Shown: positions 1,250 through 30,642 of the stretch, piece by piece
Layout of the letters: each line of letters begins with the position of its first letter
Numbering within the stretch: position 1 is the stretch's first letter
Position numbers and translations under genes: made by a program
The notes under the pieces: generated by a model
What the model was told of the DNA's origin: nothing
What the model saw: the letters and a program-made list of their open reading frames with translations, nothing else
The model's database searches: none
Assembly (NCBI GenBank): GCA_041395025.1
Contig: JAWLBH010000001.1
Span: 990,001-1,022,000 of the forward strand
DNA from: Chlamydiales bacterium
GTDB lineage: Bacteria > Chlamydiota > Chlamydiia > Chlamydiales > JAAKFR01
Direction: 5' to 3'
DNA length: 32,000 nt

Positions 1250-1389
1250 ACGTATTCACTATTACGTTCCAAATCTGAATCTATAGACTGAACGATTTTA
1301 AGTTGTTATTCCTTAAAGAGTTTGTTATATCAGAACATTTTCTCACTTAAGATGTTGCGCCAATATCATAAAAATTATAACATTGGTGT

Positions 1390-1989
1390 ATGAAAAGCCA
1401 AGACCAACTCTTTGAGATAGCAGACCGACAACAAGGCTTTTTTACTGCAAAACAAGCGGAAGAATGTGGCTATGCGCGGTCTAACTTTCATTTAAGACTT
1501 GCTTCAGGAGAATGGACTCAGGAGGGCAGGGGTATTTATCGATTAGCGAGATACCCCGTGACCGACCGGTCCGAACTTGTATTATGGAGTCTCTGGAGTA
1601 GGAATTTAAAGGATATTCCCCAAGGCGTATGGTCACATGAGACCGCTCTCGATATTCAGGAGCTGTCAGATGTGATGCCATCTAAAATGCATATGACGGT
1701 TCCTCGTGGCTTTCGAAGACGCATTGAAATCCCAAAAGTTCTATGCCTGCATTATGCGAATTTGGGCCAATCCGAGATAGAGCAAAGGCAAGGCTACCGG
1801 GTAACGGCTCCTTTTAGGACACTGCTGGATGTCTTTGAAGCAGAAACAGTAGCCGACAATTTTCTCGCTCAGGCTGTGCATCAAGCGTTAGAGAGGGGAC
1901 TTGTTGCCGAAGAAGAACTGCATTCTCTCGAAAAGACACATCCCAATATCCACTTTAAAATGAAGAGATTATTGAATGACAAGTTTTAA
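1390..1989 (+). CDS. abiEi: AbiEi-family type IV toxin-antitoxin antitoxin / transcriptional regulator
   Basis: N-terminal 'FFTAKQAEECGYARSNFHLRLASGEWTQEGRGIYRL' matches the AbiEi_4-type wHTH pattern. It overlaps the downstream DUF1814 gene by 14 nt. Confidence 0.75.
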   Translation: MKSQDQLFEIADRQQGFFTAKQAEECGYARSNFHLRLASGEWTQEGRGIYRLARYPVTDRSELVLWSLWSRNLKDIPQGVWSHETALDIQELSDVMPSKMHMTVPRGFRRRIEIPKVLCLHYANLGQSEIEQRQGYRVTAPFRTLLDVFEAETVADNFLAQAVHQALERGLVAEEELHSLEKTHPNIHFKMKRLLNDKF

Positions 1990-2836
1990 AACACCGACCG
2001 ATTTCCGCAGAAGCTTGGAAGCTCGCTTAAAGAGCATCGCGACTAACAGTAATCAAGATTTGCAACGTCTTAGACGGAAAGTTGCCTTTGAGAGGCTTTT
2101 AGCTAGAATATTTCATCAAGGCTCGGATAGTTTCGTTCTTAAGGGGGGATATGCCATGGAATTGCGCTTTGCTACGGCACGGGCAACGAAAGATATTGAT
2201 TTGACTTGCTTGCGCAGAATCAATGCATTTGATGTAGCGATTGAACATGTCATTGCTCGAGAGTTGCGCAATTTAGTGAAAGTGGACCTAAAAGATTATT
2301 TTACCTTTGAGGTTGGACCTGCCCAAATGGACTTGGATAATGCACCCTATGGAGGGGCGCGCTATTCTGTGTCTTCCTTTATCGACAGGCGACTTTTTGT
2401 AAGGTTCCAGCTCGATGTGGGGGCCGATGTCGTGGTTGACGAAATAGAGCAAGTAGAGGGGTTAGACTGGCTGAAATATTGTGGCATCGATGCGCCTAAG
2501 ATGTGGATGATTTCGATTGAACAGCAGTTCGCAGAAAAGCTACATGCCTATACCCTTCCCCGAGAGCAAAAACAAAACTCTCGCGTGAAAGATTTAATTG
2601 ACATGCTGTTGCTCAAGGAATATCGCCCCATTGATGGAAGGCGTTTCAAAGATACTTTGCAAAAAGTGTATGGTGCGCGTGGCACACATGCTTTACCCGA
2701 AAATCTTGGTCCTCCGCCCTCTGAATGGCTTCCATTATTTGAAAGCCTTGCGTCTGAATGTGGTTTATCTCTATCGATGCAAGAAGCTTACCTTGAGTTG
2801 CTGAAATTTTTTCAAAATCATGTGTTGGAAATATGA
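1976..2836 (+). CDS. abiEii: AbiEii/AbiGii-family nucleotidyltransferase toxin (DUF1814)
   Basis: 'LKGGYAMELRF...ATKDIDL' is an NTase-fold motif (G-x-x-...-D-x-D). Size is about 286 aa, with the typical position downstream of and overlapping AbiEi. Confidence 0.8.
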   Translation: MTSFKTPTDFRRSLEARLKSIATNSNQDLQRLRRKVAFERLLARIFHQGSDSFVLKGGYAMELRFATARATKDIDLTCLRRINAFDVAIEHVIARELRNLVKVDLKDYFTFEVGPAQMDLDNAPYGGARYSVSSFIDRRLFVRFQLDVGADVVVDEIEQVEGLDWLKYCGIDAPKMWMISIEQQFAEKLHAYTLPREQKQNSRVKDLIDMLLLKEYRPIDGRRFKDTLQKVYGARGTHALPENLGPPPSEWLPLFESLASECGLSLSMQEAYLELLKFFQNHVLEI

Positions 2837-3414
2837 AAAGTTATCCCAAACAATCCGAAGAAGAGAAAGAATTTAAAGGCAAAGATTTTTCAAATATCTC
2901 ATTTTCAGGATGTTCCTTTACACACTGTGTTTTTATAAGCTGTCGTTTTTCTGGATGCAATTTCCGCAATGCCAGTTTTTCAGAGTGTGCTTTTAAAAAT
3001 TGTAGTATGGATTCGACCAACATTGAGGGTTGCCGTTTTCAAGATGTATTCTTTGAGGAGAGCAAAATTGTGGGAGCTGAATTTCATAAATGTGACAGAA
3101 CCTTTTTCTCCATTCGCTTTGAGAAAAGCATCGTAATGGCCTGTAATTTTTCTGAATTGAAGATGAGGAAAACACGTTTTTGCGGGAGCAAGGTCAAGGA
3201 GTGCTATTTCAATGACACGCAGTTGTCGGAATCTGATTTTCAGCAAACTGACTTAGAGGGGACTATTTTTCATCATTGTGAGCTCTCCAAAGCCGATTTT
3301 AGAGGTGCTGTCAATTACTCCATCAATCCTCAAGCTAATATCTTGAAGAAAGCGACTTTCTCACCACCAGAAGTACTCGCATTGCTAAGTTTTTTTGATA
3401 TTAAAATTGAATAA
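2833..3414 (+). CDS. pentapeptide-repeat protein (Qnr/MfpA-like beta-helix)
   Basis: Almost the whole protein is A(D/N)(L/F)xx-type pentads ('CSFTHCVFISCRFSGCNFRNASFSECAFKNCSM...', 'ADFRGA'). Its ATG (2833-2835) overlaps the abiEii TGA (2834-2836) as ATGA. Confidence 0.85.
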   Translation: MKSYPKQSEEEKEFKGKDFSNISFSGCSFTHCVFISCRFSGCNFRNASFSECAFKNCSMDSTNIEGCRFQDVFFEESKIVGAEFHKCDRTFFSIRFEKSIVMACNFSELKMRKTRFCGSKVKECYFNDTQLSESDFQQTDLEGTIFHHCELSKADFRGAVNYSINPQANILKKATFSPPEVLALLSFFDIKIE

Positions 3415-3423
3415 TCTTTTGGA

Positions 3424-4011
3424 TTATAAATACTTGTTCAATGTACTCCAAACTATTTCGACTTGTTTGCCACGTTCGCGTTCCCATGCTGCGGTTATCT
3501 CTTTCTGAGAGGCTTTTGGGTATTTGTCGCTGTATTTTTGCATAAAATTGAGGTAAGCCCATTCTTGCTTTGGGTTAGCTTTTCTTTGTTGTCTATTGAG
3601 GTGTTCATTTTGCCAAAATTGGGCGAACTCTGCATAAGTGGGAGGGTTACCTTCTATCCATCGATTTTTAATCCAATCTTGTCCAAATGCCGTAAAGTGA
3701 AAATGGTTTCCTACAAGACTCTTCATGAATTTTCGGGTCTTCTCATCATTTTTGTAGTTGCCATGCAAAATAAGAGTTGATGGTGCTAAAGGATAGCGTG
3801 TATTTTTCTGAGCTTTTGAAGCTGAAGGGATTTGAGGCTGCTTGAGTACGGTTCCATCTTCCAAATAGCAACAAATTCTTTGAATAATTTCTCCCTTTTT
3901 GCCCCTCTCGGGGAGAGCCAATTTTTGGCATAGCTCTTTTAGCTCGCTCATGTGCATATAATGCAGGGCATTTTTTAACATGCCCACCTTGGAAGCCGAT
4001 AGTGTCTTCAT
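3424..4011 (-). CDS. SAP-motif / DUF6434-like protein
   Basis: N-terminal 'MSELKELCQKLALPERGKKGEIIQRICCYL' is a SAP-like helix-extended-helix. The C-terminal 'FHFTAFGQDWIKNRW...YAEFAQFW' resembles the DUF6434 family as I recall it. Its ATG overlaps the upstream kinase stop as ATGA (4008-4011). Confidence 0.55.
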   Translation of the reverse strand: MKTLSASKVGMLKNALHYMHMSELKELCQKLALPERGKKGEIIQRICCYLEDGTVLKQPQIPSASKAQKNTRYPLAPSTLILHGNYKNDEKTRKFMKSLVGNHFHFTAFGQDWIKNRWIEGNPPTYAEFAQFWQNEHLNRQQRKANPKQEWAYLNFMQKYSDKYPKASQKEITAAWERERGKQVEIVWSTLNKYL

Positions 4012-4619
4012 GATGGCTCATTGGGTTTTGACTTTTCGGCAAGTGCTCTTTTGATTTTTGCGACATTTTCTTCCAGTGAATGGGCGTGGCTGTCTATTTC
4101 AAGGTCATAGGCAACGTTTTCATGAACCTTGTAGTATTGAGCCCGTGCTGAGCCAACACATCGGTCTCCTCGAGTACGTTCCCTTTCTTCCAGAATTCCT
4201 AGAGGGGTGACAACGCCGACATACAGCACATTATAATCTTTTAACACCTGCTTCCACTCTTCAACTTCAACCGTTCCGAACGCTACATCATCGATAATCA
4301 GGTTGTAATGTTGAGAGGTCAGGAGGATGGCAATATCTTTAAGGGTGCGCACAATGCGTTTTGCAAAGGGGCCAGCTCTTACATGAAAAATGCGATGTCC
4401 TTCTGGGTCAGTATCGGCCTCCCAGGAAAACCCAAGAGGCGCAGAGCCTCCTTCCCAATTGTTTATCTTAGCGGGCATGAAACCAATAATTTTATCGATG
4501 CCAAGATGGAGAAAGGGTTCTTCAAAAGAATTTTGTAAAGCCTTGGCCAATGTCGTTTTTCCTGAGCTTGAAGGGCCGTTTAAGTAAATTATTTTTTCCA
4601 TAGGTAACTCGTTTGCCAA
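4008..4619 (-). CDS. chloramphenicol-phosphotransferase-like (CPT family) P-loop kinase
   Basis: Walker A 'GPSSSGKTT' lies near the N-terminus. 'LHLGIDKIIGFMP' and 'LIIDDV' (Walker B-like) are typical of the CPT/AAA_33 kinase family. About 200 aa. Confidence 0.7.
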   Translation of the reverse strand: MANELPMEKIIYLNGPSSSGKTTLAKALQNSFEEPFLHLGIDKIIGFMPAKINNWEGGSAPLGFSWEADTDPEGHRIFHVRAGPFAKRIVRTLKDIAILLTSQHYNLIIDDVAFGTVEVEEWKQVLKDYNVLYVGVVTPLGILEERERTRGDRCVGSARAQYYKVHENVAYDLEIDSHAHSLEENVAKIKRALAEKSKPNEPS

Positions 4620-4818: not shown

Positions 4819-5886
4819 ATGGCTAACATTCAAGAGCGTACTTCCAAAGATGGCAAAACCACCTACCGAGTCCAGGTTCGCCTTAAAGGCTATCCATCCC
4901 AAACAGCTACTTTTGCAAGGAAAACAGATGCAAGGCGATGGGCTCAACAAATTGAAACCGCAATTCGTGAAGGACGTCATTTTAAAACAGCAGAAGCTAA
5001 AAAGCGAACTCTTGCTGAATTAATCGATAGATACATCGAGCAAGTATTGCCGAGTAAACCAAAAAGCTTTGATAAGCAACAGGCACAGCTTCTTTGGTGG
5101 AAAGAAAAGTTGGGTGCATATGCACTTGCTGATATTACACCAGCTCTCGTGGCTGAATACCGAGATTTGCTTTTGGGTGAAGTAACTTGCAGAGGGAAGA
5201 AGCGCTCTAATTCTACTGTAGTTAGGTATTTAGCTGCACTTTCCCATGCATTTACTGTAGCTATGAGGGAGTGGGGTTGGATTGAAGATTCGCCATTGCG
5301 AAAGGTCTCTAAGCCAAAAGAGCCTGGAGGGAGGGTCCGCTTTTTAGACACAGATGAACGTACTCGTCTTTTAGAAGCGTGCAAGGAGAGTAGGAACCCA
5401 TTTTTATATCCCATAGTTACGCTTGCTCTAGCGACAGGAATGCGGCGGGCAGAAATTTTGAATCTCACCTGGGGAAATGTGGACTTTGAAAGAAATAAAA
5501 TTGTTCTTTTGGAAACCAAAAATGGCGACAAGCGCATTGTGCCTCTTTCGAGTCATACTAAGGCAATTCTTTTATCAATCAGAGAGCAAAGCGATGACCC
5601 TTCATTCTTTGTTTTTCCAAGACAAAAAGGACAAAAGCCACAAAAACCAATCGATATTAGAACTGCATGGGAGGTTTCTTTAGAAAAGGCGCAGATTCGA
5701 AATTTTCGATTTCATGATTTGCGCCATTGCTGCGCTTCATATCTCTTGATGAATGGAGCTTCTCTTGCTGAGATTTCTGAAGTGCTAGGGCATCGGACTC
5801 TAGCGATGGTTAAGAGGTATGCGCATATGTCCGAAGGGCATGCTGCAAACATTGTATCAAAAATGAATGAAAATATTTTTGGGTAG
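4819..5886 (+). CDS. int: tyrosine-type site-specific integrase
   Basis: Catalytic motifs 'GMRRAEI' (Arg I), 'HDLRHCCAS' (H-x-x-R) and 'LGHRTLAMVKRYAH' (His/Tyr). The N-terminal SAM-like arm 'TYRVQVRLKGY...' is typical of phage integrases. Confidence 0.9.
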   Translation: MANIQERTSKDGKTTYRVQVRLKGYPSQTATFARKTDARRWAQQIETAIREGRHFKTAEAKKRTLAELIDRYIEQVLPSKPKSFDKQQAQLLWWKEKLGAYALADITPALVAEYRDLLLGEVTCRGKKRSNSTVVRYLAALSHAFTVAMREWGWIEDSPLRKVSKPKEPGGRVRFLDTDERTRLLEACKESRNPFLYPIVTLALATGMRRAEILNLTWGNVDFERNKIVLLETKNGDKRIVPLSSHTKAILLSIREQSDDPSFFVFPRQKGQKPQKPIDIRTAWEVSLEKAQIRNFRFHDLRHCCASYLLMNGASLAEISEVLGHRTLAMVKRYAHMSEGHAANIVSKMNENIFG

Positions 5887-5889
5887 GTT

Positions 5890-6501
5890 ATGAAAGAAAT
5901 TGAATTAAAGAGGATGTATCTTGAGCAGGAAAGAAAAATTACTCCACTGAAGCCTCATTGGTTGCAGAAGGATTTTATGCAACCATGTGAGGCTGTCTTG
6001 GTGTATTATCAAATAGAACCCGCTATGGAGCAACTTAAAGAGCGAGATATGCAAATCATAAAAGCTATCGATTATCTCGGTATCTATGATGTTTTGATGT
6101 CCTCAGAATTTATTGTGAAGTCTCCTCCCTCTATTAAGTTTGTCGATTTTGTCCAATGGGCTATCAGTAAAGGATTTGGCCTTCCAGAGCATCTGAAGCA
6201 TGTCCAACAGGGGCATGAAAGTAATCAATCTGAAGAAGAAGGTTCGGATGAGGAGGGAGTGTCCTTAAATTTATCCTCCGTCAAATTGCCTCTTCTTCTT
6301 ACGGAGTTGGCTAAACGATTGATGAAAAAAATATCACCGGAATCAAAGTATGCTTCTCTCCCTGCAAACGAAATTGTTAAATTTTCTGATGAGTTCAAGT
6401 CGTTGCGGGCGGTTGTTAGGGCTATAAGGGATGGTAAGGACTATGAGGATGAGTGGTATCAGCGTAAAACTAGCTCTGTAGGACCTCGTAAGCGTAAATA
6501 A
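5890..6501 (+). CDS. hypothetical protein (element cargo; acidic Ser/Glu-rich linker)
   Basis: A 203-aa ORF that starts 4 nt after the int stop. No motif recognised. Confidence 0.45.
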   Translation: MKEIELKRMYLEQERKITPLKPHWLQKDFMQPCEAVLVYYQIEPAMEQLKERDMQIIKAIDYLGIYDVLMSSEFIVKSPPSIKFVDFVQWAISKGFGLPEHLKHVQQGHESNQSEEEGSDEEGVSLNLSSVKLPLLLTELAKRLMKKISPESKYASLPANEIVKFSDEFKSLRAVVRAIRDGKDYEDEWYQRKTSSVGPRKRK

Positions 6502-6563
6502 ATTAATTCGACAACGTAGTTTTCAACTTTCTTTGTTGTTTTTTCTCTCAAAAACATCTTTGC

Positions 6564-6599
6564 GAATGTCATTTTCGTCTAAAATGAATGTCTTTTTCG
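6564..6599. repeat. 14-nt direct repeat pair GAATGTC(A/T)TTTTCG (6564-6577, 6586-6599), 22-nt phasing
   Basis: Read directly. Lies in the 264-nt AT-rich intergenic region upstream of the rightward element genes. Confidence 0.45.
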
Positions 6600-6644
6600 A
6601 TTTTTCTCGGCAGTGTTCTTTAGCTGTCTTCTTCTGAATCTTTG

Positions 6645-6664
6645 TGTATTTGAATATAAATACA
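6645..6664. promoter_or_regulatory. 7-bp inverted repeat TGTATTT-GAATAT-AAATACA (candidate operator)
   Basis: Read directly. Sits in the intergenic control region of the element. The ATACAATT motif recurs at 6660 and 6715, with an inverted ATTGTA at 6726. Confidence 0.35.
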
Positions 6665-6765
6665 ATTGAATCTGAACTAACAGTTCATAAATTATACTTG
6701 TAATTTCATTTTTCATACAATTCGGATTGTAAATGTTTGAAAACTAATTCAACCGTAAGGAGGTA

Positions 6766-7029
6766 GTGATGTCAAACATAGCAAACGAACTGCATGAGCG
6801 TATTTCAGTGAGAAATCTACTCACAGTTCCTCAGCTTTCTCAGAAACACCCAGCATTTAGCCAAGCTGCTTTAAGGCATTTGATATTTGATGCCAATAAC
6901 AATGGCTTCTGTTGCGTTGTAAAGAGAGTTGGCAAGAGAAAAATTTTACTGGATGAGCAAGCGTTTTTCCATTGGATAGACAAACAACAAAGTGAAAAGG
7001 GAGAAAAGAACCATGAATCCAAGAAATAA
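6766..7029 (+). CDS. excisionase/AlpA-like helix-turn-helix DNA-binding protein
   Basis: 'LLTVPQLSQKHPAFSQAALRHLI...VVKRVGKRKILLDEQAFFHWI' follows the HTH_17/excisionase pattern (LLT-x-x-E/Q...G-R/K-x-x-I/L-x-x-x-x-x-x-x-W). 'AAGGAGG' lies 6 nt upstream. Confidence 0.55.
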   Translation: MMSNIANELHERISVRNLLTVPQLSQKHPAFSQAALRHLIFDANNNGFCCVVKRVGKRKILLDEQAFFHWIDKQQSEKGEKNHESKK

Positions 7030-7041
7030 ACGCCTCTTGGA

Positions 7042-7374
7042 GTGCTAAGCAAACGGGATAGAGTATTTGTCAGCGAACTCCTCAAGTTGATAGGAGCTTT
7101 GAACCCAGCTCAAAATACACATGACCTGAGACAGGCTGGGTGGAAAATTCATACAGGGAGGGTTATAACAAAGGACCGTGACGGAAGGGTCTGTCATCCT
7201 GGATTCTATTTGTTAGAACCTGATGAAAAAGCTAGGGCATTGGAGTTCCTTCAAAAGGCTGATGGAGCGGCTGGCACCGCTCCGTCAGCGGGTGATAATT
7301 CCAAGCATCTAAACTCTAAATCATCAGATAAAGCTAATGATAGCATAGGAGGTGAAAATGACAACCTCTTATGA
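7042..7374 (+). CDS. hypothetical protein (possible small winged-helix protein)
   Basis: GTG-initiated 110-aa ORF between the HTH gene and the DUF3987 gene, overlapping the latter. No motif recognised. Confidence 0.35.
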   Translation: MLSKRDRVFVSELLKLIGALNPAQNTHDLRQAGWKIHTGRVITKDRDGRVCHPGFYLLEPDEKARALEFLQKADGAAGTAPSAGDNSKHLNSKSSDKANDSIGGENDNLL

Positions 7375-8830
7375 TTGGCAAGCCCCCATTCCTTTGGGGG
7401 CAATTGATTCACCTTCTTTCCCTGAAGGAGTCTTTCCAGATGCGATTGAAAAGTTTGTTGGGGAATTGTCTCGGTCTACAGAAACCCCGCGTGATTTAGC
7501 AGGGCTTACTATATTGGCAGCCCTAGCGACAGCCTCACACAATAAATACGTCGTTCAGGTCAAATCGGACTATCGTGAGCCGGTGAATCTTTGGACAGCA
7601 GTTGCGCTTCCTCCTGGAAGCCGAAAATCGGCTGTTTTAGCGGCTGCTATCAAACCTATCGAGAAGTATGAGAAGCAGAAGCAGAAGTTAATTGAACCCT
7701 TGATAAAAGAAATTACCTCCAGGAATAAAAGCTTGGAGGTGCGCATCAGGGAATTGCGAAATATGGTTGCCAAGGCTAAAGAGTGCGATTTTGAGGCACT
7801 TCAACAAGAAATTTTTACTCTTGAGGAGAAGATTGAGGAACCTCCTGCTTTTCCCCAGCTATGGACAAGCGATGTGACACCAGAAAATTTGGGAACACTC
7901 ATGGTCTTAAATCATGAGTGTATGGCTGTCTTAAGCGATGAGGCTGGAATTTTTGACATATTGGCTGGTAGGTATTCATCAGGCATTCCTAATTTAGATT
8001 TATTTTTAAAGAGTCACACGGGAAGTCCTGCGAGAGTAAATCGGATGGGAAGACCCCCCGATTTACTGGAGCGGGCGATTCTGACAATGGGACTGACCCC
8101 GCAACCAGATGTTTTGAAAGGGCTAGGAAAAAATCGAACCTTTAGAGGGAGGGGGTTGCTCGGAAGGTTTCTTTATGCGATGCCACGTTCAAACTTGGGG
8201 AAGCGTGATTTAAACGCATCTCCAATGTTGCCAGAAGTAGAAGCCGGCTATCATCGGGTGCTCGAAGCGATTTTAGAGCATGAAATGAGCGGTGATGCTC
8301 AATATGCCTTGAATCTTTCCCCAGAGGCATATGAAAAGTGGTTTGGTTATTCTCGTGCTATTGAGATTCAAATGGATGAGGGGGGTCCCCTTGCATTCAT
8401 GACTGATTGGGCGGGCAAGCTTGCAGGTCAAATTGCTAGAATAGGGGCTCTTATTCACATCGCAAGATATGCATCTGAAAAGCCGTGGATGCAAGCAATT
8501 TCCATGGAGGATATGGGTGCAGCTATCAAAATAGGGCACTACCTATCAAAGCATGCACAAGCTGTTTTTGACTTGATGGGGGCAGACCCAGCACTTGAGG
8601 GAGCCAAAGCTGTTCTACGCTGGGTTGCAGCGAATCGATATGAGAGCTTTACGTTCAGGGATTGCCAATATGCACATAAGAGTCGATTTAAGAAGGCTAA
8701 GGAGCTGCAAGACTCGATTGAAGTGCTTTTAGACAACTACTTCATCATCGAAGCAGAACAGGAGAAAAAGACGGGAAGACCGAGTCGGGTTCTTTATGTG
8801 AATCCATACATTTTTTGTGAGGACAAGTAG
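7358..8830 (+). CDS. DUF3987 (YfjI-like) protein of integrative elements
   Basis: N-terminal 'WQAPIPL...FPEGVFPDAIEKFVGELSRSTETPRDLAGLTILAALATA...EPVNLWTAVALPPGSRKS' matches the DUF3987 pattern. AGGAGG (7347-7352) sits 5 nt before the ATG at 7358; the track ORF starts at GTG 7352. Confidence 0.75.
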   Translation: MTTSYDWQAPIPLGAIDSPSFPEGVFPDAIEKFVGELSRSTETPRDLAGLTILAALATASHNKYVVQVKSDYREPVNLWTAVALPPGSRKSAVLAAAIKPIEKYEKQKQKLIEPLIKEITSRNKSLEVRIRELRNMVAKAKECDFEALQQEIFTLEEKIEEPPAFPQLWTSDVTPENLGTLMVLNHECMAVLSDEAGIFDILAGRYSSGIPNLDLFLKSHTGSPARVNRMGRPPDLLERAILTMGLTPQPDVLKGLGKNRTFRGRGLLGRFLYAMPRSNLGKRDLNASPMLPEVEAGYHRVLEAILEHEMSGDAQYALNLSPEAYEKWFGYSRAIEIQMDEGGPLAFMTDWAGKLAGQIARIGALIHIARYASEKPWMQAISMEDMGAAIKIGHYLSKHAQAVFDLMGADPALEGAKAVLRWVAANRYESFTFRDCQYAHKSRFKKAKELQDSIEVLLDNYFIIEAEQEKKTGRPSRVLYVNPYIFCEDK

Positions 8831-8875
8831 CCTTTTTGTGGTTTTTGTCCTTTTTGACCATAAGGAGAAGAAAAT

Positions 8876-9472
8876 ATGACCCAGAGTGTATCAAAAAATT
8901 TACCTGCTCAAGAGAAGGTAGAGGAAGTTTTTTTGAGGTATCAGTTTAGAGATAATCCTGAAACAGGGCGCAGAGAGGTATGTGGGATTGAGCTGTCGGA
9001 TAAGACAAAACCAGACTCTCCCGAATTTATTGAAAAATTGAAACTCGCTCTTAAAGGAATGACCGGCAGCAGGAACCCTGAAATAGCCGAGCGCATTGTT
9101 TCCAAGATTGCCTGGGCAATGTCTGCAGAGGACAATGAGCATCGCCTAAAAGAAGTCACGACCTTGCTTCATACTCTAGAGCCTCAAAATGAAACAGAGG
9201 CGCTGTTGTTAGGGCAATTTCTTGCTTTGCAAGATTCTGGCATACAATGCTTACACAATGCGAATTACAATGAAATGTTTTATCATAAGAAGGAACTCTT
9301 TCAGCTTTCGGTGAAGCTGTTTCGTTGTGCCAATGAGACGATGCAAACGCTATTGAAATATCGCTCTGGGGGTAAGCAGCAGATTCAGGTCATTCATGTA
9401 TCTGGGGAGGGAAAAGCAGTCATAGCAAATGAAATGAAGACGGGTGGGGTAGTGGATAAAAAAGTTACGTAA
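8876..9472 (+). CDS. hypothetical protein (element cargo)
   Basis: A 198-aa ORF with 'AAGGAGAAG' upstream of its ATG. No motif recognised. Confidence 0.5.
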   Translation: MTQSVSKNLPAQEKVEEVFLRYQFRDNPETGRREVCGIELSDKTKPDSPEFIEKLKLALKGMTGSRNPEIAERIVSKIAWAMSAEDNEHRLKEVTTLLHTLEPQNETEALLLGQFLALQDSGIQCLHNANYNEMFYHKKELFQLSVKLFRCANETMQTLLKYRSGGKQQIQVIHVSGEGKAVIANEMKTGGVVDKKVT

Positions 9473-9571
9473 GACCCCATGTATCATTGAGAGGAACTAA
9501 ACCCACAAAAGCCACAAAACTATGGGAAGATGCACAGCTAAATCGAAACGTTCAGGTGAACGGTGTAAGAA

Positions 9572-10030
9572 TTGGGCGATACAAAAGAAAGCAACGTGCC
9601 GTTTTTAGCATCCTTCATTGCTAAGAATTTACTCCCTTATAGAGGGCTAGGGACTGGTATCCGCCGTGCCCTTCAACATTGGTCGCACATTGATTTTGTC
9701 GAGGATAGAGAGGGCTGCCTCTTCACCTCAATTATTCACAGAATAAAGGTGCACTCCTCTCCAGGTAATGCTAAAAAATCAAGAAATAAAGGTGCAATAA
9801 AGGTGCAAAATACACCTATAAAAGCACCTAAAAATGCACCTTTATCTCCTCTACAAAAACAAATAATAGATCTTTTAATTGGGAATGCAAAGGCTTCGTA
9901 CGATGATATAGCCCAAGCCATAGGGAAAGACCGCAGCACAGTCATGAGGAATGTCCAGAAATTAAAGCAAGATGGGATAGTGCGCCGAATGGGGTCTAAA
10001 AAAACGGGGACTTGGGAAGTGGATATATAA
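9572..10030 (+). pseudogene. gene fragment: C-terminal part of an AlbA_2/HATPase_c_4-type putative DNA-binding regulator plus winged HTH; the N-terminal part is missing
   Basis: 'LPYRGLGTGIRRALQHWSHIDFVEDREG..F' resembles the C-terminal end of HATPase_c_4 regulators. 'LSPLQKQIIDLL..ASYDDIAQAIGKDRSTVMRNVQKLKQDGIVRR' is a MarR/AsnC-like wHTH. Only a TTG start is available and no upstream domain is present. Confidence 0.45.
9743..9845. repeat. iteron-like array of the 11-mer ATAAAGGTGCA: three direct copies, one perfect inverted copy and two degenerate inverted copies
   Basis: Direct copies lie at 9743-9753, 9786-9796 and 9797-9807. The perfect inverted copy TGCACCTTTAT lies at 9835-9845. Degenerate inverted cores are TACACCT (9811) and AGCACCT (9823), with 11-12 nt phasing. 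Confidence 0.6.
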
Positions 10031-10148
10031 ATGTCCCATTTTGTCCCTTGCTAACACAAACATCTTCTGTCAATGTAGATCATAATCCCTTGTTGTCAAT
10101 TATTCCAGGCTTTTGTAGAGTGTTCGCTTTCACAAGCATGAGTTGAGA

Positions 10149-10575
10149 ATGGCTACAATTGAAGAGCGACCTACCAAAGATGGGAAAACGCATTATCGTG
10201 CGAAAGTGCAGCTGCGGGTATCCGCCACAAAATCGTACGTTTGAAAGGAAAACCGACGCGAAGCGTTGGATTCAGCAGATGGAAGCAGCAATGCGTGAAG
10301 GACGCCATTTTAAGCATATCGAATCGCGTAAACATACTTTGTGTGATTTGGTGGATCGATTGGCTCACCAGCAGAGCAGCCCCTCTTCTTACACTTTCCC
10401 TTCCGAAAAGGGACAAAAGATACAAAAGCCCGCTGATATTCGGAGCGCCTGGGAACAAGTTCTTAAAAAGGCTGCAATCGAAGACTTCCGTTTTCATGAT
10501 CTTCACCATTCTGCAAATCACCATGAAACAGTCGTTGCCAACATGAATGAGAAGGTGTTTGGTTGGGTGCAATAA
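10149..10575 (+). pseudogene. tyrosine integrase pseudogene (frameshift plus large internal deletions)
   Basis: ATG at 10149 encodes 'MATIEERPTKDGKTHYRAKVQLR', parallel to 'MANIQERTSKDGKTTYRVQVRL' of int, then stops. Homology continues in the 10159 frame ('RKTDAKRWIQQMEAAMREGRHF', 'KGQKIQKPADIRSAWE', 'FRFHDLHHS', 'NMNEKVFG'). Most of the catalytic core is missing, with no Arg I and no Tyr region. Confidence 0.8.
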
Positions 10576-10970
10576 ATGGACGACGAAGCGATAGAACAAC
10601 GGCACTACGCCACACAAACCCGAAACCGAAAATTTAGATATGAAGAGATCAAGAACCCTTCTCTTGACATAAAATATCCAAAAATAAGGACATTATTTGC
10701 AAAAACAATCAGTTATTTCTACCCCATTTTTTGTGACAAATGCTTTACAAGATCAATTTCTACATGCAGGAAAATCTCAGCCTTCCATGTATCTAGATCC
10801 AGCAATTCGAGCGGGGATTTCCAGTTTTGCCCGCCCTGGATTTGAAGGAGAGGTCTCAGAAGGTTTAGAGGCTTTAAAAAGAGATATTGAGACAAAAAAA
10901 ATCGATCACATTATTCAACAATATGAAAGCAATTGTGGAGATTATTTATACATTAGCGCTCTAAAGGATC

Positions 10971-11606: not shown

Positions 11607-11785
11607 GGTGTATCCAGAGACGCGAATTCGCAAACATGACAAGTGTTTATGGAACAAAAATGGGACATTTTTTGGCAAAAAATGAGAATGAATAGCAAAG
11701 AATGACAGCTGCAAAGTTTTCAGAAGTTTCTGTTGGATAAGTTGTTATGTATTGTGAATCGTTGGTCAGTTTTTAAAACGGAAGA

Positions 11786-11837
11786 CTTAAAATCCCTTGG
11801 GCTTTTGCCTGTGCGGGTTCGAGTCCCGCTCTGAGCA
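11786..11837 (+). other. 3' fragment of tRNA-Leu(UAA), anticodon loop to discriminator base; no 5' half (att-site remnant)
   Basis: Contains loop CTTAAAA, stem strand TCCCT, long variable arm GGGC-TTTT-GCCT, T-arm GCGGG-TTCGAGT-CCCGC, acceptor strand TCTGAGC and discriminator A. No complementary GCTCAGA and no D-arm occur upstream. Confidence 0.75.
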
Positions 11838-12377
11838 AATTTATCTTCAGGTGTTTAGGTTAAATATTTATATTCAAGAGTTTCAAATGTTTGTGGCAAA
11901 CTGATGGCACAAATTCAGATGAAAAACAATGAAAATTTTAAATTCTCTGGGGTAGTATATGGTGTTGCAATTTGTTGCCCTACCTTTGGAGGTTTTTATG
12001 CGAAAGGTACTCTTGACTCTCAAAACAGTGGAACACTCCGATTAATAAGAGTTTCTCTTAGTTCAGAACCACAGATCGAAAGTGCTCCTCTGAGATAACT
12101 GTAGTCCAGGCAATAGTCTATCTGTGGTATCTATTCTAGGAAGACAAGAAATTGAGCTAGTGAAGTTGCACAGTCTTTTAAATCAGCAATATTCATCTGA
12201 ATACGAAAAACAGTTATGTTAAATACCTATCTAGGTTTTCAAAAACTCACCCCCATTTCTTTTAGAGGAATGAAGAGGTTAAAGCGCCTTGATGATGAAT
12301 GTTTAAGATTTTTTATTGACTATAGATGATTATATATTTAGAATTTGCGAGAAAATTTTTCAAAAATAGGTCGTATC

Positions 12378-21460: not shown

Positions 21461-22138
21461 TTACAATCTCTTTCCTTGAAATTTTTTACGGTTTCTCCAA
21501 TATCCGTTTCCATAATCATAGGTTAACTCTTCACCTGATGAGATAGTTTTTATGGTGCGTAATAAGATGTGGAATAAACCTTGGCAATAAACTGCAATGG
21601 ATTCACAGTTAGGTGAATCATCATGATTAATAAAACGAGTATAATTGCCTTGTTTTTTACTATCAATCGTATAGGCATGGGTTGAGATCCACTCGCGTGG
21701 ATACATAAAACAATAGCGATTCGTATTAGGGAAAAACAGAGAACGTCGTCGTAAAACTCCAGTGTATTCACCAATGTATTGCCATTGTTTAAAGGGTTTT
21801 GTAGAAAAAAGCCCATAGCCGATCTCTTCATTGATCCATTGAATCGCTACGGGGGGAATCATGTGTTGAGTGAGCTCTTTAAAATGATAAGTTCCAAGCC
21901 ATCGAGAGAATGGATGAATTTTTCTTTTTTTTTCAGCAGATCTGCATTTTTTGCGTATCGACTGCTCAGTTCTCCAGTCAGAAAAGGTGAGTTGTTTTAG
22001 ATAGGTCAATCCAAAAAACTCTTCAAATTCTTGGATAGAGTATTCTTTTATTTTAGAGCTTTCTTTAGAAGAAATTTTTAGAGTCAAAAGAAGACACCTT
22101 GTCCGAGATGATCTTGTGGAGCTATTGTAATAGGACAA
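21461..22138 (-). CDS. SET-domain protein lysine methyltransferase (chlamydial NUE-like)
   Basis: 'YTRFINHDDSPNCE' matches R-F-I-N-H-S-C-x-P-N and 'GEELTYDYG' matches E-L-x-x-D-Y. The ATG at 22138 overlaps the yycJ end by 55 nt. An alternative TTG at 22087 forms TTGA with the yycJ stop. Confidence 0.8.
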   Translation of the reverse strand: MSYYNSSTRSSRTRCLLLTLKISSKESSKIKEYSIQEFEEFFGLTYLKQLTFSDWRTEQSIRKKCRSAEKKRKIHPFSRWLGTYHFKELTQHMIPPVAIQWINEEIGYGLFSTKPFKQWQYIGEYTGVLRRRSLFFPNTNRYCFMYPREWISTHAYTIDSKKQGNYTRFINHDDSPNCESIAVYCQGLFHILLRTIKTISSGEELTYDYGNGYWRNRKKFQGKRL

Positions 22139-25098: not shown

Positions 25099-25257
25099 AT
25101 CTTTCCTTTTATATCAACCTCTTAAAATTTATGGAATCGCTCTTTTGTTTTTTAGTCTCGATAATGTTTTAAGATTAGGGGATAAAACATGATTGAAAAT
25201 CAAGGATAAGGAATAGAGATGGATATAAAATACTTCAATGACAATAGGAAAAGTGAG

Positions 25258-25332
<75 letters not shown>

Positions 25333-25583
25333 ATCTATGGAAGCATTTTGTGAAATCTAAGATAAAAAGTCAATTTCTCTGGGTCAATTAGGCTAAGGCA
25401 AGTCGTAATCTAGAATCAAGTTGAATAAAAGATATCGAAGATATTTTTTTTTGTGAAAAAATTAAATTGCTGAAAAAAAAGAGATTTGAGTATCGTATTG
25501 TCTTCTCATTAAAGAGACCTTCAAAAAAGGCAATGAGAATACCATCGTTATTAAGCGATGGATGCTAAAAAACAGCAATATAT

Positions 25584-25615
25584 CACTTGACAGCAAAAAT
25601 GAGACAAAATGCAGA
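25584..25615 (+). other. 5' strand of the 16S precursor processing stem
   Basis: CACTTGACAGCAAAAATGAGACAAAATGCAGA pairs with 27288-27319. 29 positions are Watson-Crick, with one G.U and two mismatches. Confidence 0.7.
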
Positions 25616-25689
25616 TCCAATCTTTATGGTTGGAAAGACTTATGAAAATCAAGCTTAAGCTTGGTTTCCGTTAATTTTAAATTTATTTT

Positions 25690-27240
<1,551 letters not shown>

Positions 27241-27287
27241 TAAGGACAAGATAGATCGGTTTTCCGATCGTCTAGGTTGAGAGTCAG

Positions 27288-27319
27288 TCTGTATTTTGTC
27301 TCTTTTTTGCTGTGAAGTG
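27288..27319 (+). other. 3' strand of the 16S precursor processing stem
   Basis: TCTGTATTTTGTCTCTTTTTTGCTGTGAAGTG is complementary to 25584-25615. Confidence 0.7.
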
Positions 27320-27357
27320 TTTCTGGATAGTTTAGTAATTCAAGCAAATAAACAATT

Positions 27358-27384
27358 TCACTTAGAATAAGTGGCGCTTGAAGA
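27358..27384 (+). other. 5' strand of the 23S precursor processing stem
   Basis: TCACTTAGAATAAGTGGCGCTTGAAGA pairs with 30472-30498. Both differences are G.U pairs. Confidence 0.7.
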
Positions 27385-27441
27385 ATATATCATATATACG
27401 TTGAAAAATTAAAATCTTAGCAATTTGCACAAAATTTTTGT

Positions 27442-30388
<2,947 letters not shown>

Positions 30389-30471
30389 TTTTTCATTGCA
30401 TTTGGCCGAGAAGGCTGAATAAGTGGTTTAAGTTTTCGCAAAAAGCGATTTTTCATTCTGTAGAATGAGTA

Positions 30472-30498
30472 TCTTCAAGCGTCATTTATTCTAAGTGA
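30472..30498 (+). other. 3' strand of the 23S precursor processing stem
   Basis: TCTTCAAGCGTCATTTATTCTAAGTGA is complementary to 27358-27384. Confidence 0.7.
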
Positions 30499-30526
30499 GT
30501 CTTTTGTTGATTTACTAAACAAATTT

Positions 30527-30642
30527 TCTTGGTGGCAATAGAGAAGGGGGTACACCTGATCCCATTCCGAACTCAGAAGTTAAGTCCTTCATCGCCGATG
30601 GTACTGCACACAAGAGTGTGGAAGAGTAGGACGCTGCCAAGT
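30527..30642 (+). rRNA. rrf: 5S ribosomal RNA
   Basis: Helix I forms between CTTGGTGGC and GCTGCCAAG. Conserved 'CCGAACTCAGAAGTTAAG' and 'GAGAGTAGG'-like 'GAAGAGTAGGAC' are present. Confidence 0.9.

Follow-up and report, generated by a model that had tools for sequence, protein, structure and literature searches.

A chlamydial AbiE toxin-antitoxin pair with an AlbG-type pentapeptide-repeat gene as its likely passenger

Introduction

Does a gene that is tightly coupled to a toxin-antitoxin (TA) pair belong to the system, or does it merely travel with it? This question is raised by a locus of a Chlamydiales bacterium, in which the genes abiEi and abiEii of an AbiE abortive-infection system are followed directly by a gene for a pentapeptide-repeat protein (PRP). 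The locus lies in a stretch of 32,000 nucleotides (GenBank assembly GCA_041395025.1, contig JAWLBH010000001.1, positions 990,001 to 1,022,000), which is called the window, and positions are counted from its first letter. The original prediction had placed the third gene outside the AbiE system as described, and the present analysis agrees. Two roles had been proposed for it: an accessory component of a three-gene defence cassette or a resistance-like passenger. The second is favoured over the first because AbiE and the PRP decay independently in related loci, and do so in both directions. It is considered reasonably probable that the AbiE pair captured an AlbG-type PRP as a passenger third cistron, which is not a component of AbiE.

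No description of a PRP gene coupled to abiEii was found in the searchable literature. The terms for AbiEii and for pentapeptide repeats meet in two papers; the one listed is a comparative-genomics study of Bradyrhizobium, with two occurrences each. A literature search on Hailong yielded nothing of use.

Organization of the locus

The three genes lie on the + strand and follow one another without gaps. The gene abiEi (1390-1989) encodes a winged helix-turn-helix (wHTH) antitoxin and transcriptional repressor of 199 aa, and abiEii (1976-2836) a DUF1814 nucleotidyltransferase (NTase) toxin of 286 aa. They overlap by 14 nt (1976-1989). The PRP gene (2833-3414) encodes an AlbG/McbG-type protein of 193 aa, and its ATG (2833-2835) and the TGA of abiEii (2834-2836) have the sequence ATGA at 2833-2836 in common. 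This packing of open reading frames (ORFs) had been described in the original prediction, and the coordinates, the 14-nt overlap and the shared ATGA were all reproduced. The three gene assignments were borne out by profile searches (PF13338, PF08843 and PF00805), with PADLOC matches for AbiEi and AbiEii. Five relatives (L010, L012, L013, L014 and L015; loci are cited by their L numbers) have the same ATGA, and the tight junction is therefore no chance feature of a single window sequence.

AbiEi matches PF13338 with its N-terminal wHTH (residues 5-53, 8.2e-12) and the PADLOC AbiEi model over residues 2-188 (3.7e-67), and thereby has the antitoxin architecture of AbiE. AbiEii matches PF08843 (1.3e-27) and the PADLOC AbiEii model (1.3e-81). 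Mutagenesis of the Streptococcus agalactiae AbiEii proved that four motifs are needed, namely hG[GS], DhD, KLxAaxxR and +DxxD (PMC3985639). In the window, motif I is KGG (56-58), motif II D73-I-D75, motif III K188-LHAYTLP-R196 and motif IV K205-DLID209. A threonine, T71 in TKDID, sits two residues before DxD; its equivalence to the phosphorylated T65 discussed below is by position only. The motif positions and T71 are invariant across an alignment of 14 homologues. Because all four NTase motifs and the phosphoacceptor threonine are present, AbiEi and AbiEii are, as judged from their sequences, a complete and canonical AbiE pair. The antitoxin-first order and the 14-nt overlap of an AbiE operon are found as well, together with the third overlapping cistron; most relatives of the locus effectively have two genes.

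The view of AbiE as a wHTH antitoxin with a DUF1814 toxin holds. Its designation as a type IV system with a GTP-specific toxin, also part of the original prediction, is under revision by a preprint of 2026 (10.64898/2026.01.19.700257). According to this work, AbiEi binds AbiEii and induces auto-phosphorylation at T65, which makes the system type VII, and the NTase of AbiEii is pyrimidine-specific with tRNAs as substrates.

The pair resembles AbiE of S. agalactiae and Lactococcus lactis and MenA/MenT of Mycobacterium tuberculosis in several respects. The antitoxin comes first, the ORFs overlap, and AbiEi has an N-terminal wHTH. The DUF1814 NTase motifs I to IV, the threonine two residues before DxD and a palindrome in the promoter region are shared too. 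In contrast, the window has a third cistron that overlaps the toxin stop codon, and its palindrome is of another sequence and ends 1 nt before the ATG. The locus also belongs to an environmental chlamydia.

The pentapeptide-repeat protein

AlbG of Xanthomonas albilineans and McbG are PRPs that shield DNA gyrase from albicidin and microcin B17. The window PRP matches PF00805 (2.4e-25) and aligns in phmmer with AlbG (PDB 2xt4) over residues 10-192 (4.9e-23, about 28% identity). The homology takes in the conserved C-terminal NYSI...FS.PE..LL...DI region. The AlphaFold2 model (pLDDT 92, pTM 0.87) predicts a beta-helix with a C-terminal helix at residues 178-185. When the predicted structure was searched with Foldseek, AlbG came first (TM 0.78-0.85), followed by MfpA and QnrB1. 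An acidic surface that mimics DNA is a mark of topoisomerase-protecting PRPs; the window PRP, taken to be soluble, has a pI of 6.4 and a net charge of about -1 over the whole protein, and with 12 Cys and 25 Phe it is unusually rich in both residues. No hydrophobic segment was found in it (the maximum Kyte-Doolittle mean over 19 residues is 1.06), and PADLOC returned no match for it.

A Qnr/MfpA-like beta-helix protein had been proposed from the sequence, and the predicted fold agrees with this, the closest relatives being AlbG and McbG. Membership in the named families was rejected by the NCBIfam scores, which are 55 bits against a cutoff of 240 for Qnr and 41 bits against 360 for MfpA. The Hailong effector HalA was rejected likewise, with 43 bits against a cutoff of 250, no hydrophobic segment and no PADLOC match. 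By homology and predicted structure, the PRP is a full-length AlbG/McbG-type beta-helix protein and not a member of Qnr, MfpA or HalA. It shares with AlbG and McbG the homology over the full length, a similar size (193 aa vs 194-200 aa) and the best structural match. It differs from them in its low identity, its position outside a toxin-biosynthesis cluster, its nearly neutral charge and its wealth of Cys and Phe. With Qnr and MfpA it has in common the right-handed beta-helix with a C-terminal helix, as predicted, but its scores lie below the family cutoffs and its structural similarity to them is lower than to AlbG.

Distribution of the AbiEii-PRP junction

Whether the arrangement recurs was surveyed in 160 AbiEii loci from one scan each of genome and metagenome collections, with 45-91% identity to the window, several of them short contigs. 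Every six-frame ORF was screened by tblastn and with a hidden Markov model of the PRP family. The named AbiEii homologues come from metagenome-assembled genomes of Chlamydiota (Waddliaceae, Simkaniaceae, Parachlamydiales). Full-length PRPs or clear relics of them adjoin AbiEii only in one clade, in which AbiEii is at least 63% identical to that of the window. This clade comprises about 21 distinct loci, all from Chlamydiota where the record is named. L041 is the one exception; its PRP, of 41% identity, is encoded on the opposite strand at a distance of 1.1 kb. No full-length member of the PRP family was coupled downstream in the other AbiEii loci, about 140 from Verrucomicrobiota, Acidobacteriota and other Chlamydiota. 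The co-occurrence of DUF1814 and PRP genes, for which a survey had been suggested, thus recurs, but only by descent in one AbiE clade of Chlamydiota.

In 129 evaluable loci, no recurrent third gene was found after AbiEii besides the PRP gene and a mini-gene of the L159 type, which is discussed below. The ORFs at this position are heterogeneous; from their sequences they are presumably an SDR-like protein, transposase-like proteins and unknowns.

The PRP also occurs without AbiE. A search of 5.8 billion clustered proteins yielded 10 homologues at E < 1e-10, and no PRP relatives were found on viral contigs. Genomic contexts of the family were inspected in up to 12 look-ups, and those of the more distant homologues are free of AbiE. 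In another chlamydial genome (P0008/L002), the PRP gene begins 6 nt after a chloramphenicol phosphotransferase-like (CPT) gene, and P0010/L005 overlaps CutA1 by 1 nt. The L007 PRP, which is 78% identical to that of the window, directly abuts a gene for a tRNA-binding domain. P0009/L175 follows a cluster of beta-lactamase-family genes, and P0007 stands beside abhydrolase, GNAT and glyoxalase genes. Unlinked PRP genes are often packed as tightly as the AbiE-linked ones. In neighbour-joining trees, built without bootstrap, linked and unlinked PRPs are interspersed, and the basal members are unlinked.

Independent decay of AbiE and the PRP

The fate of the three genes within the clade was tallied by sensitive searches of the DNA just 3' of each AbiEii stop codon, together with ORF and motif checks. 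Of about 13 loci that descend from the junction, the window is the only one in which all three genes are intact.

Seven loci have AbiEi and AbiEii at full length with all motifs, and a dead PRP gene. The lesions differ: the PRP gene of L010 has a 1-nt deletion, foreign DNA interrupts that of L015 at codon 87, and that of L012 consists of N-terminal fragments with stop codons. In L014, which is otherwise syntenic with the window, only about the first 8 and the last 22 codons are left. L013, L017 and L018 hold relics of the PRP start only.

The reverse is seen in four loci, where AbiE is damaged or deleted and the PRP is intact or nearly so. AbiEii of L059 is truncated at 205 aa and lacks motifs III and IV; a GrpB gene comes next, and then the PRP gene. 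In L053, AbiEi is shortened to 180 aa, AbiEii is split, and the PRP is retained. A single T->C change in L095 destroys both the AbiEii start (ATG->ACG) and the AbiEi stop, and a 13-nt deletion puts AbiEii and the PRP in one frame. L009 has lost AbiE save for a 70-nt relic of the abiEii 3' end, and keeps the PRP. Both parts are damaged in L025. No trace of the PRP was found in eight further clade loci (L019, L097, L023, L100/101, L021, L024, L020 and L016).

The in-frame fusion of L095 was considered as Rosetta-stone evidence for a joint function and was rejected, as the AbiEii start is destroyed and the locus is decaying.

The subclade of the window has ATGA at the junction and that of L053 has TTGAAAGCTTGTGA, two forms that are homologous, and the PRP N-termini are recognisably related (MKSYP..., IKSYEN..., LKACEDKRF...). 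For these reasons a single origin followed by many losses appears to be the most parsimonious history. A resident PRP gene with a recent AbiE insertion upstream was discarded as an explanation, since the divergent linked loci (L053, L095 and L059) and the relics (L017, L018 and L025) show that the junction is old.

Where it is retained, the PRP is under purifying selection. By the NG86 method, the ratios of nonsynonymous to synonymous substitution rates (dN/dS) between the window and L010 are 0.07 for AbiEi, 0.11 for AbiEii and 0.16 for the PRP; between the window and L015 they are 0.10, 0.10 and 0.11. The window PRP gives 0.11 against L009, 0.14 against L007 and 0.16 against L053. For the same genome pairs, dS is similar for the PRP (0.38-0.53) and AbiE (0.35-0.76), which fits co-inheritance. 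The PRP gene is therefore in working order (dN/dS 0.11-0.16) and has diverged together with AbiE, and L010 and L015 acquired their lesions recently. Between the window and L010, the entire block 1355-3420 is 85% identical, and the flanks are unrelated.

Some further rearrangements were seen in the surveyed loci. The foreign DNA after PRP codon 87 of L015 (2160-2330) contains two tandem 41-nt repeats (2193-2274, TGCGCGAAAGGGGTTAATCGCGCAACATTGAGATGTTAAAT), and the element was not found in any other fetched locus. In L078 (3001-4250), an AbiEii gene 91% identical to that of the window is interrupted at codon 138, and two ORFs follow before the fetched DNA ends; from a reading of the sequence we take these to be Orf1 and Orf2 of the IS66 family. 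L012 has a second AbiEii-like fragment (10327-10648, 73% identical to window 2012-2334) at 4.5 kb downstream of its intact AbiE pair, on the same chlamydial contig of 2.58 Mb.

Promoter and operator signals

A conserved promoter/operator block (1355-1389, + strand) directly abuts the abiEi ATG and is a candidate site of AbiEi autoregulation. DNA homology with close relatives begins sharply at 1349-1355, and the block TTGCACCAATATCATAAAAATTATAACATTGGTG(C/T)ATG is conserved among them. The block contains a palindrome, CACCAAT-N17-ATTGGTG, whose left arm (1358-1364) reads CGCCAAT in the window and whose right arm spans 1382-1388. The palindrome occurs at a fixed distance of -32 from the ATG, with at most one mismatch, in 16 of 19 clade loci. 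More distant loci show compensatory changes of the arms, as in CACAAAT...ATTTGTG, CACGAAT...ATTCGTG and CACCAAA...TTTGGTG. The palindrome was found by a mismatch-tolerant scan; a repeat search with exact 6-nt seeds misses the window copy because of the mismatch in its left arm, and a strict IUPAC pattern matches 3 loci. AbiEi of S. agalactiae binds inverted repeats in its promoter and exerts negative autoregulation (PMC3985639). By this precedent, the palindrome is a credible operator candidate for AbiEi.

Possible -35 (TTGCGC, 1355-1360) and -10 (TATAAC, 1376-1381) elements are separated by a 15-nt spacer, and a promoter-like site was called at 1340-1369 (+) just 5' of abiEi. The palindrome leaves a single nucleotide before the ATG, and no Shine-Dalgarno sequence is evident. 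The predicted abiEi transcript could be nearly leaderless.

The last promoter-like site on the + strand before the PRP gene (2314-2341) precedes the gene's start by about 490 nt. A crude consensus scan tuned to E. coli sigma-70 found none on the + strand at 2342-3414, and no terminator-like site was found between abiEii and the PRP gene.

Another motif, TTAAG-N-TGTT, had been put forward in the original prediction as a possible AbiEi operator. It is indeed present twice upstream (1298-1307 and 1347-1356), but when the window was shuffled 100 times with its dinucleotides preserved, 11 shuffles also had two or more matches, and in the 18 relatives examined the motif is missing upstream of abiEi. 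The motif was rejected as an operator, being at chance level and unconserved; the palindrome is conserved instead.

Passenger or component

Taken together with the known AbiE systems, these results allow a scheme for the locus to be proposed. AbiEi would repress the operon, probably through the conserved palindrome directly before the abiEi start codon, and would neutralise AbiEii. By analogy, AbiEii would be expected to block translation by modifying tRNA. Because no promoter of its own was detected and its ATG overlaps the abiEii stop codon, the PRP gene probably relies on the abiE promoter for its transcription and on termination-reinitiation for its translation. The junction would have arisen once, in the clade ancestor, when an AbiE pair landed directly upstream of a resident chlamydial PRP gene. 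By comparison with its characterised homologues, the PRP is most likely a dimeric beta-helix that binds a type II topoisomerase and protects it from a poison, independently of AbiE. Dependence on the abiE promoter and on the coupling would itself explain the adjacency wherever the PRP survives.

Several observations weigh against a mere passenger. The linkage persists across substantial divergence (AbiEii 56-90% identity), and the tight coupling is kept, as ATGA and as TTGAAAGCTTGTGA, in loci whose flanking genes are not the same. Linked copies of the PRP evolve under purifying selection. A fixed gene order amid rearranged flanks is classically read as evidence of a functional link; the same pattern would arise with a downstream gene that lacks a promoter, simply as separated copies die. 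The tally of decay has weak points as well: the L010 lesion is a single base and possibly an assembly error, and the contig names of the L053 and L009 assemblies are in the style of long-read data, in which case single-base indels may be errors.

A further counterpoint comes from a soil-metagenome subclade in which AbiEii is 46-48% identical to that of the window. In L159 (3872-4141) and L163 (3391-3648), a conserved gene of 89 aa starts 2 nt after the AbiEii stop codon, and relics of this mini-gene are found in L174, L153 and L150. Its dN/dS is 0.108. Its score for Pentapeptide_3 is 21 bits, below the cutoff of 27, and hhalign aligns it with PRP residues 5-55 (68% probability, E 4.6e-5). It may be an independent PRP-like third gene and a possible recurrence of the arrangement, which would hint that DUF1814 toxins gained PRP-like partners more than once.

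An alternative is a facultative third component, in which the PRP would be a functional accessory of this AbiE lineage and the cassette would often revert to two genes. The PRP could then influence the activity of AbiEii or AbiEi, serve as a sensor or decoy by mimicking nucleic acid, or shield the host topoisomerase during AbiE arrest. Such a role is possible, though unlikely. Two diverged subclades keep the junction, and in both of them the stop codon overlaps the start codon, and the block shared by the window and L010 looks as if it travelled as a unit. The co-divergence of the PRP with AbiE under purifying selection, the 89-aa gene of L159 and L163 and even the weak NCBIfam match to HalA are in line with an accessory. 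Against it, three-gene integrity is confined to a single junction-descended locus. AbiE does without the PRP in at least seven relic loci and eight traceless ones, and the PRP does without a working AbiE in at least four. PRP orthologues function in AbiE-free contexts, the roughly 140 other AbiEii loci lack a full-length PRP downstream, and third ORFs elsewhere are heterogeneous. The fusion of L095 sits in a locus with a destroyed AbiEii start. That each part is lost independently and works without the other argues against an obligate three-component system. A three-gene AbiE variant specific to Chlamydiota, in which the AlbG-like PRP tunes the toxin or links topoisomerase or DNA status to AbiE, appears improbable.

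The opposite explanation is pure adjacency. The PRP gene would then be an independent unit with a promoter of its own inside the 3' end of abiEii, and the ATGA would be incidental. In its favour, chlamydial genes are densely packed in general, PRP genes of this family elsewhere begin 0-6 nt after unrelated genes, and the promoter scan was crude and tuned to E. coli. The scan nevertheless gave no candidate in the stretch in question, and no terminator follows abiEii. Moreover, the junction is retained across the clade as ATGA or a 14-nt overlap, even as a relic after the body of the PRP is lost. This explanation is accordingly held to be quite doubtful.

A logic like that of Hailong (HalB/HalA), in which an NTase makes a nucleic-acid signal that is sensed by a PRP-containing effector, is highly improbable: an NTase gene does adjoin a gene for a pentapeptide-like product with a weak HalA match, but this match is far under the cutoff, the PRP has no membrane segment, effector domain or PADLOC match, its best homologues are soluble gyrase-protecting PRPs, and AbiEii is of another NTase family and has its own antitoxin.

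The capture of the PRP gene as a passenger is thus preferred, since the independent decay of AbiE and the PRP in relatives makes this status of the extra gene the most likely.

Genomic neighbourhood

The AbiE-PRP cluster is flanked upstream by GNAT and alpha/beta-hydrolase genes. Downstream, a SAP/DUF6434 gene (3424-4011, - strand, assigned by Pfam) converges on the PRP gene with a 9-nt gap; it is absent from the syntenic locus L014. It is followed by the gene for a CPT-like kinase (4008-4619, - strand, PF07931 2.5e-38). The two overlap by 4 nt (4008-4011) and form a coupled pair of their own.

A tyrosine integrase gene (4819-5886, + strand, PF00589 1.5e-33), syntenic in L014, starts an integrase/DUF3987 element. 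The region 4819-10575 contains, after the integrase, an unknown gene of 203 aa, a DUF3987 gene (7352-8830), a wHTH gene (9572-10030) and a degraded second integrase copy (10159-10575). The integrase copies share a direct repeat of 98 nt (4888-4985 and 10216-10313) with 76% identity. The arrangement points to integrative elements that lie in tandem or one inside the other.

A 3' fragment of tRNA-Leu(TAA) at 11784-11857 (+ strand) resembles an att-like remnant; ARAGORN calls no tRNA there. In L014 the fragment matches 873-946, and ARAGORN reports an intact tRNA-Leu(taa) there at 844-926; in L013 it matches 6083-6137, 225 nt after AbiEii. The intact tRNA-Leu of L014 lies upstream of the syntenic abhydrolase-AbiE-CPT-integrase cluster. 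Because the fragment matches the intact tRNA-Leu that bounds the syntenic locus, the AbiE-PRP cluster is probably part of a tRNA-Leu-associated genomic island, with 11784-11857 as its likely right-hand end.

Members of the PRP family and AbiE loci are found amid resistance-like genes in L002, L175, the P0007 contig, L012, L014 and the window. These neighbours include CPT, beta-lactamase-family, GNAT, glyoxalase, APH and alpha/beta-hydrolase genes, which suggests a variable 'resistance-like' neighbourhood in environmental chlamydiae.

Further along the window, a eukaryote-like SET-domain protein (21461-22138, - strand, PF00856 3.8e-21) is encoded next to a metallo-beta-lactamase-fold gene and ftsK. 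The region 25257-30642 holds tRNA-His (25257-25331, - strand) and then a complete rRNA operon, with 16S at 25690-27240, 23S at 27442-30388 and 5S at 30528-30642. Two listed ORFs, 29288-29866 and 29886-30254, fall within the 23S gene and were discarded as spurious.

Conclusion

The best-supported reading of the locus is an AbiE family member that carries a passenger gene, rather than a system of a new kind. Were the accessory role true, a third protein would be seen for the first time in an AbiE/MenT-type system, and a tRNA-targeting toxin would be tied to a DNA-mimic fold. If the PRP gene is a passenger, the locus is a clean natural case in which an autoregulated TA operon captured a gene at its 3' end and lost it repeatedly. 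It would then also be a caution against calling a new component from the overlapping ORFs of a single genome. Beyond this, the analysis proposes, with good support, a candidate operator for a large AbiE clade of chlamydiae, and it points to a family of AlbG-like PRPs in environmental chlamydiae, set among small-molecule-resistance-like genes.

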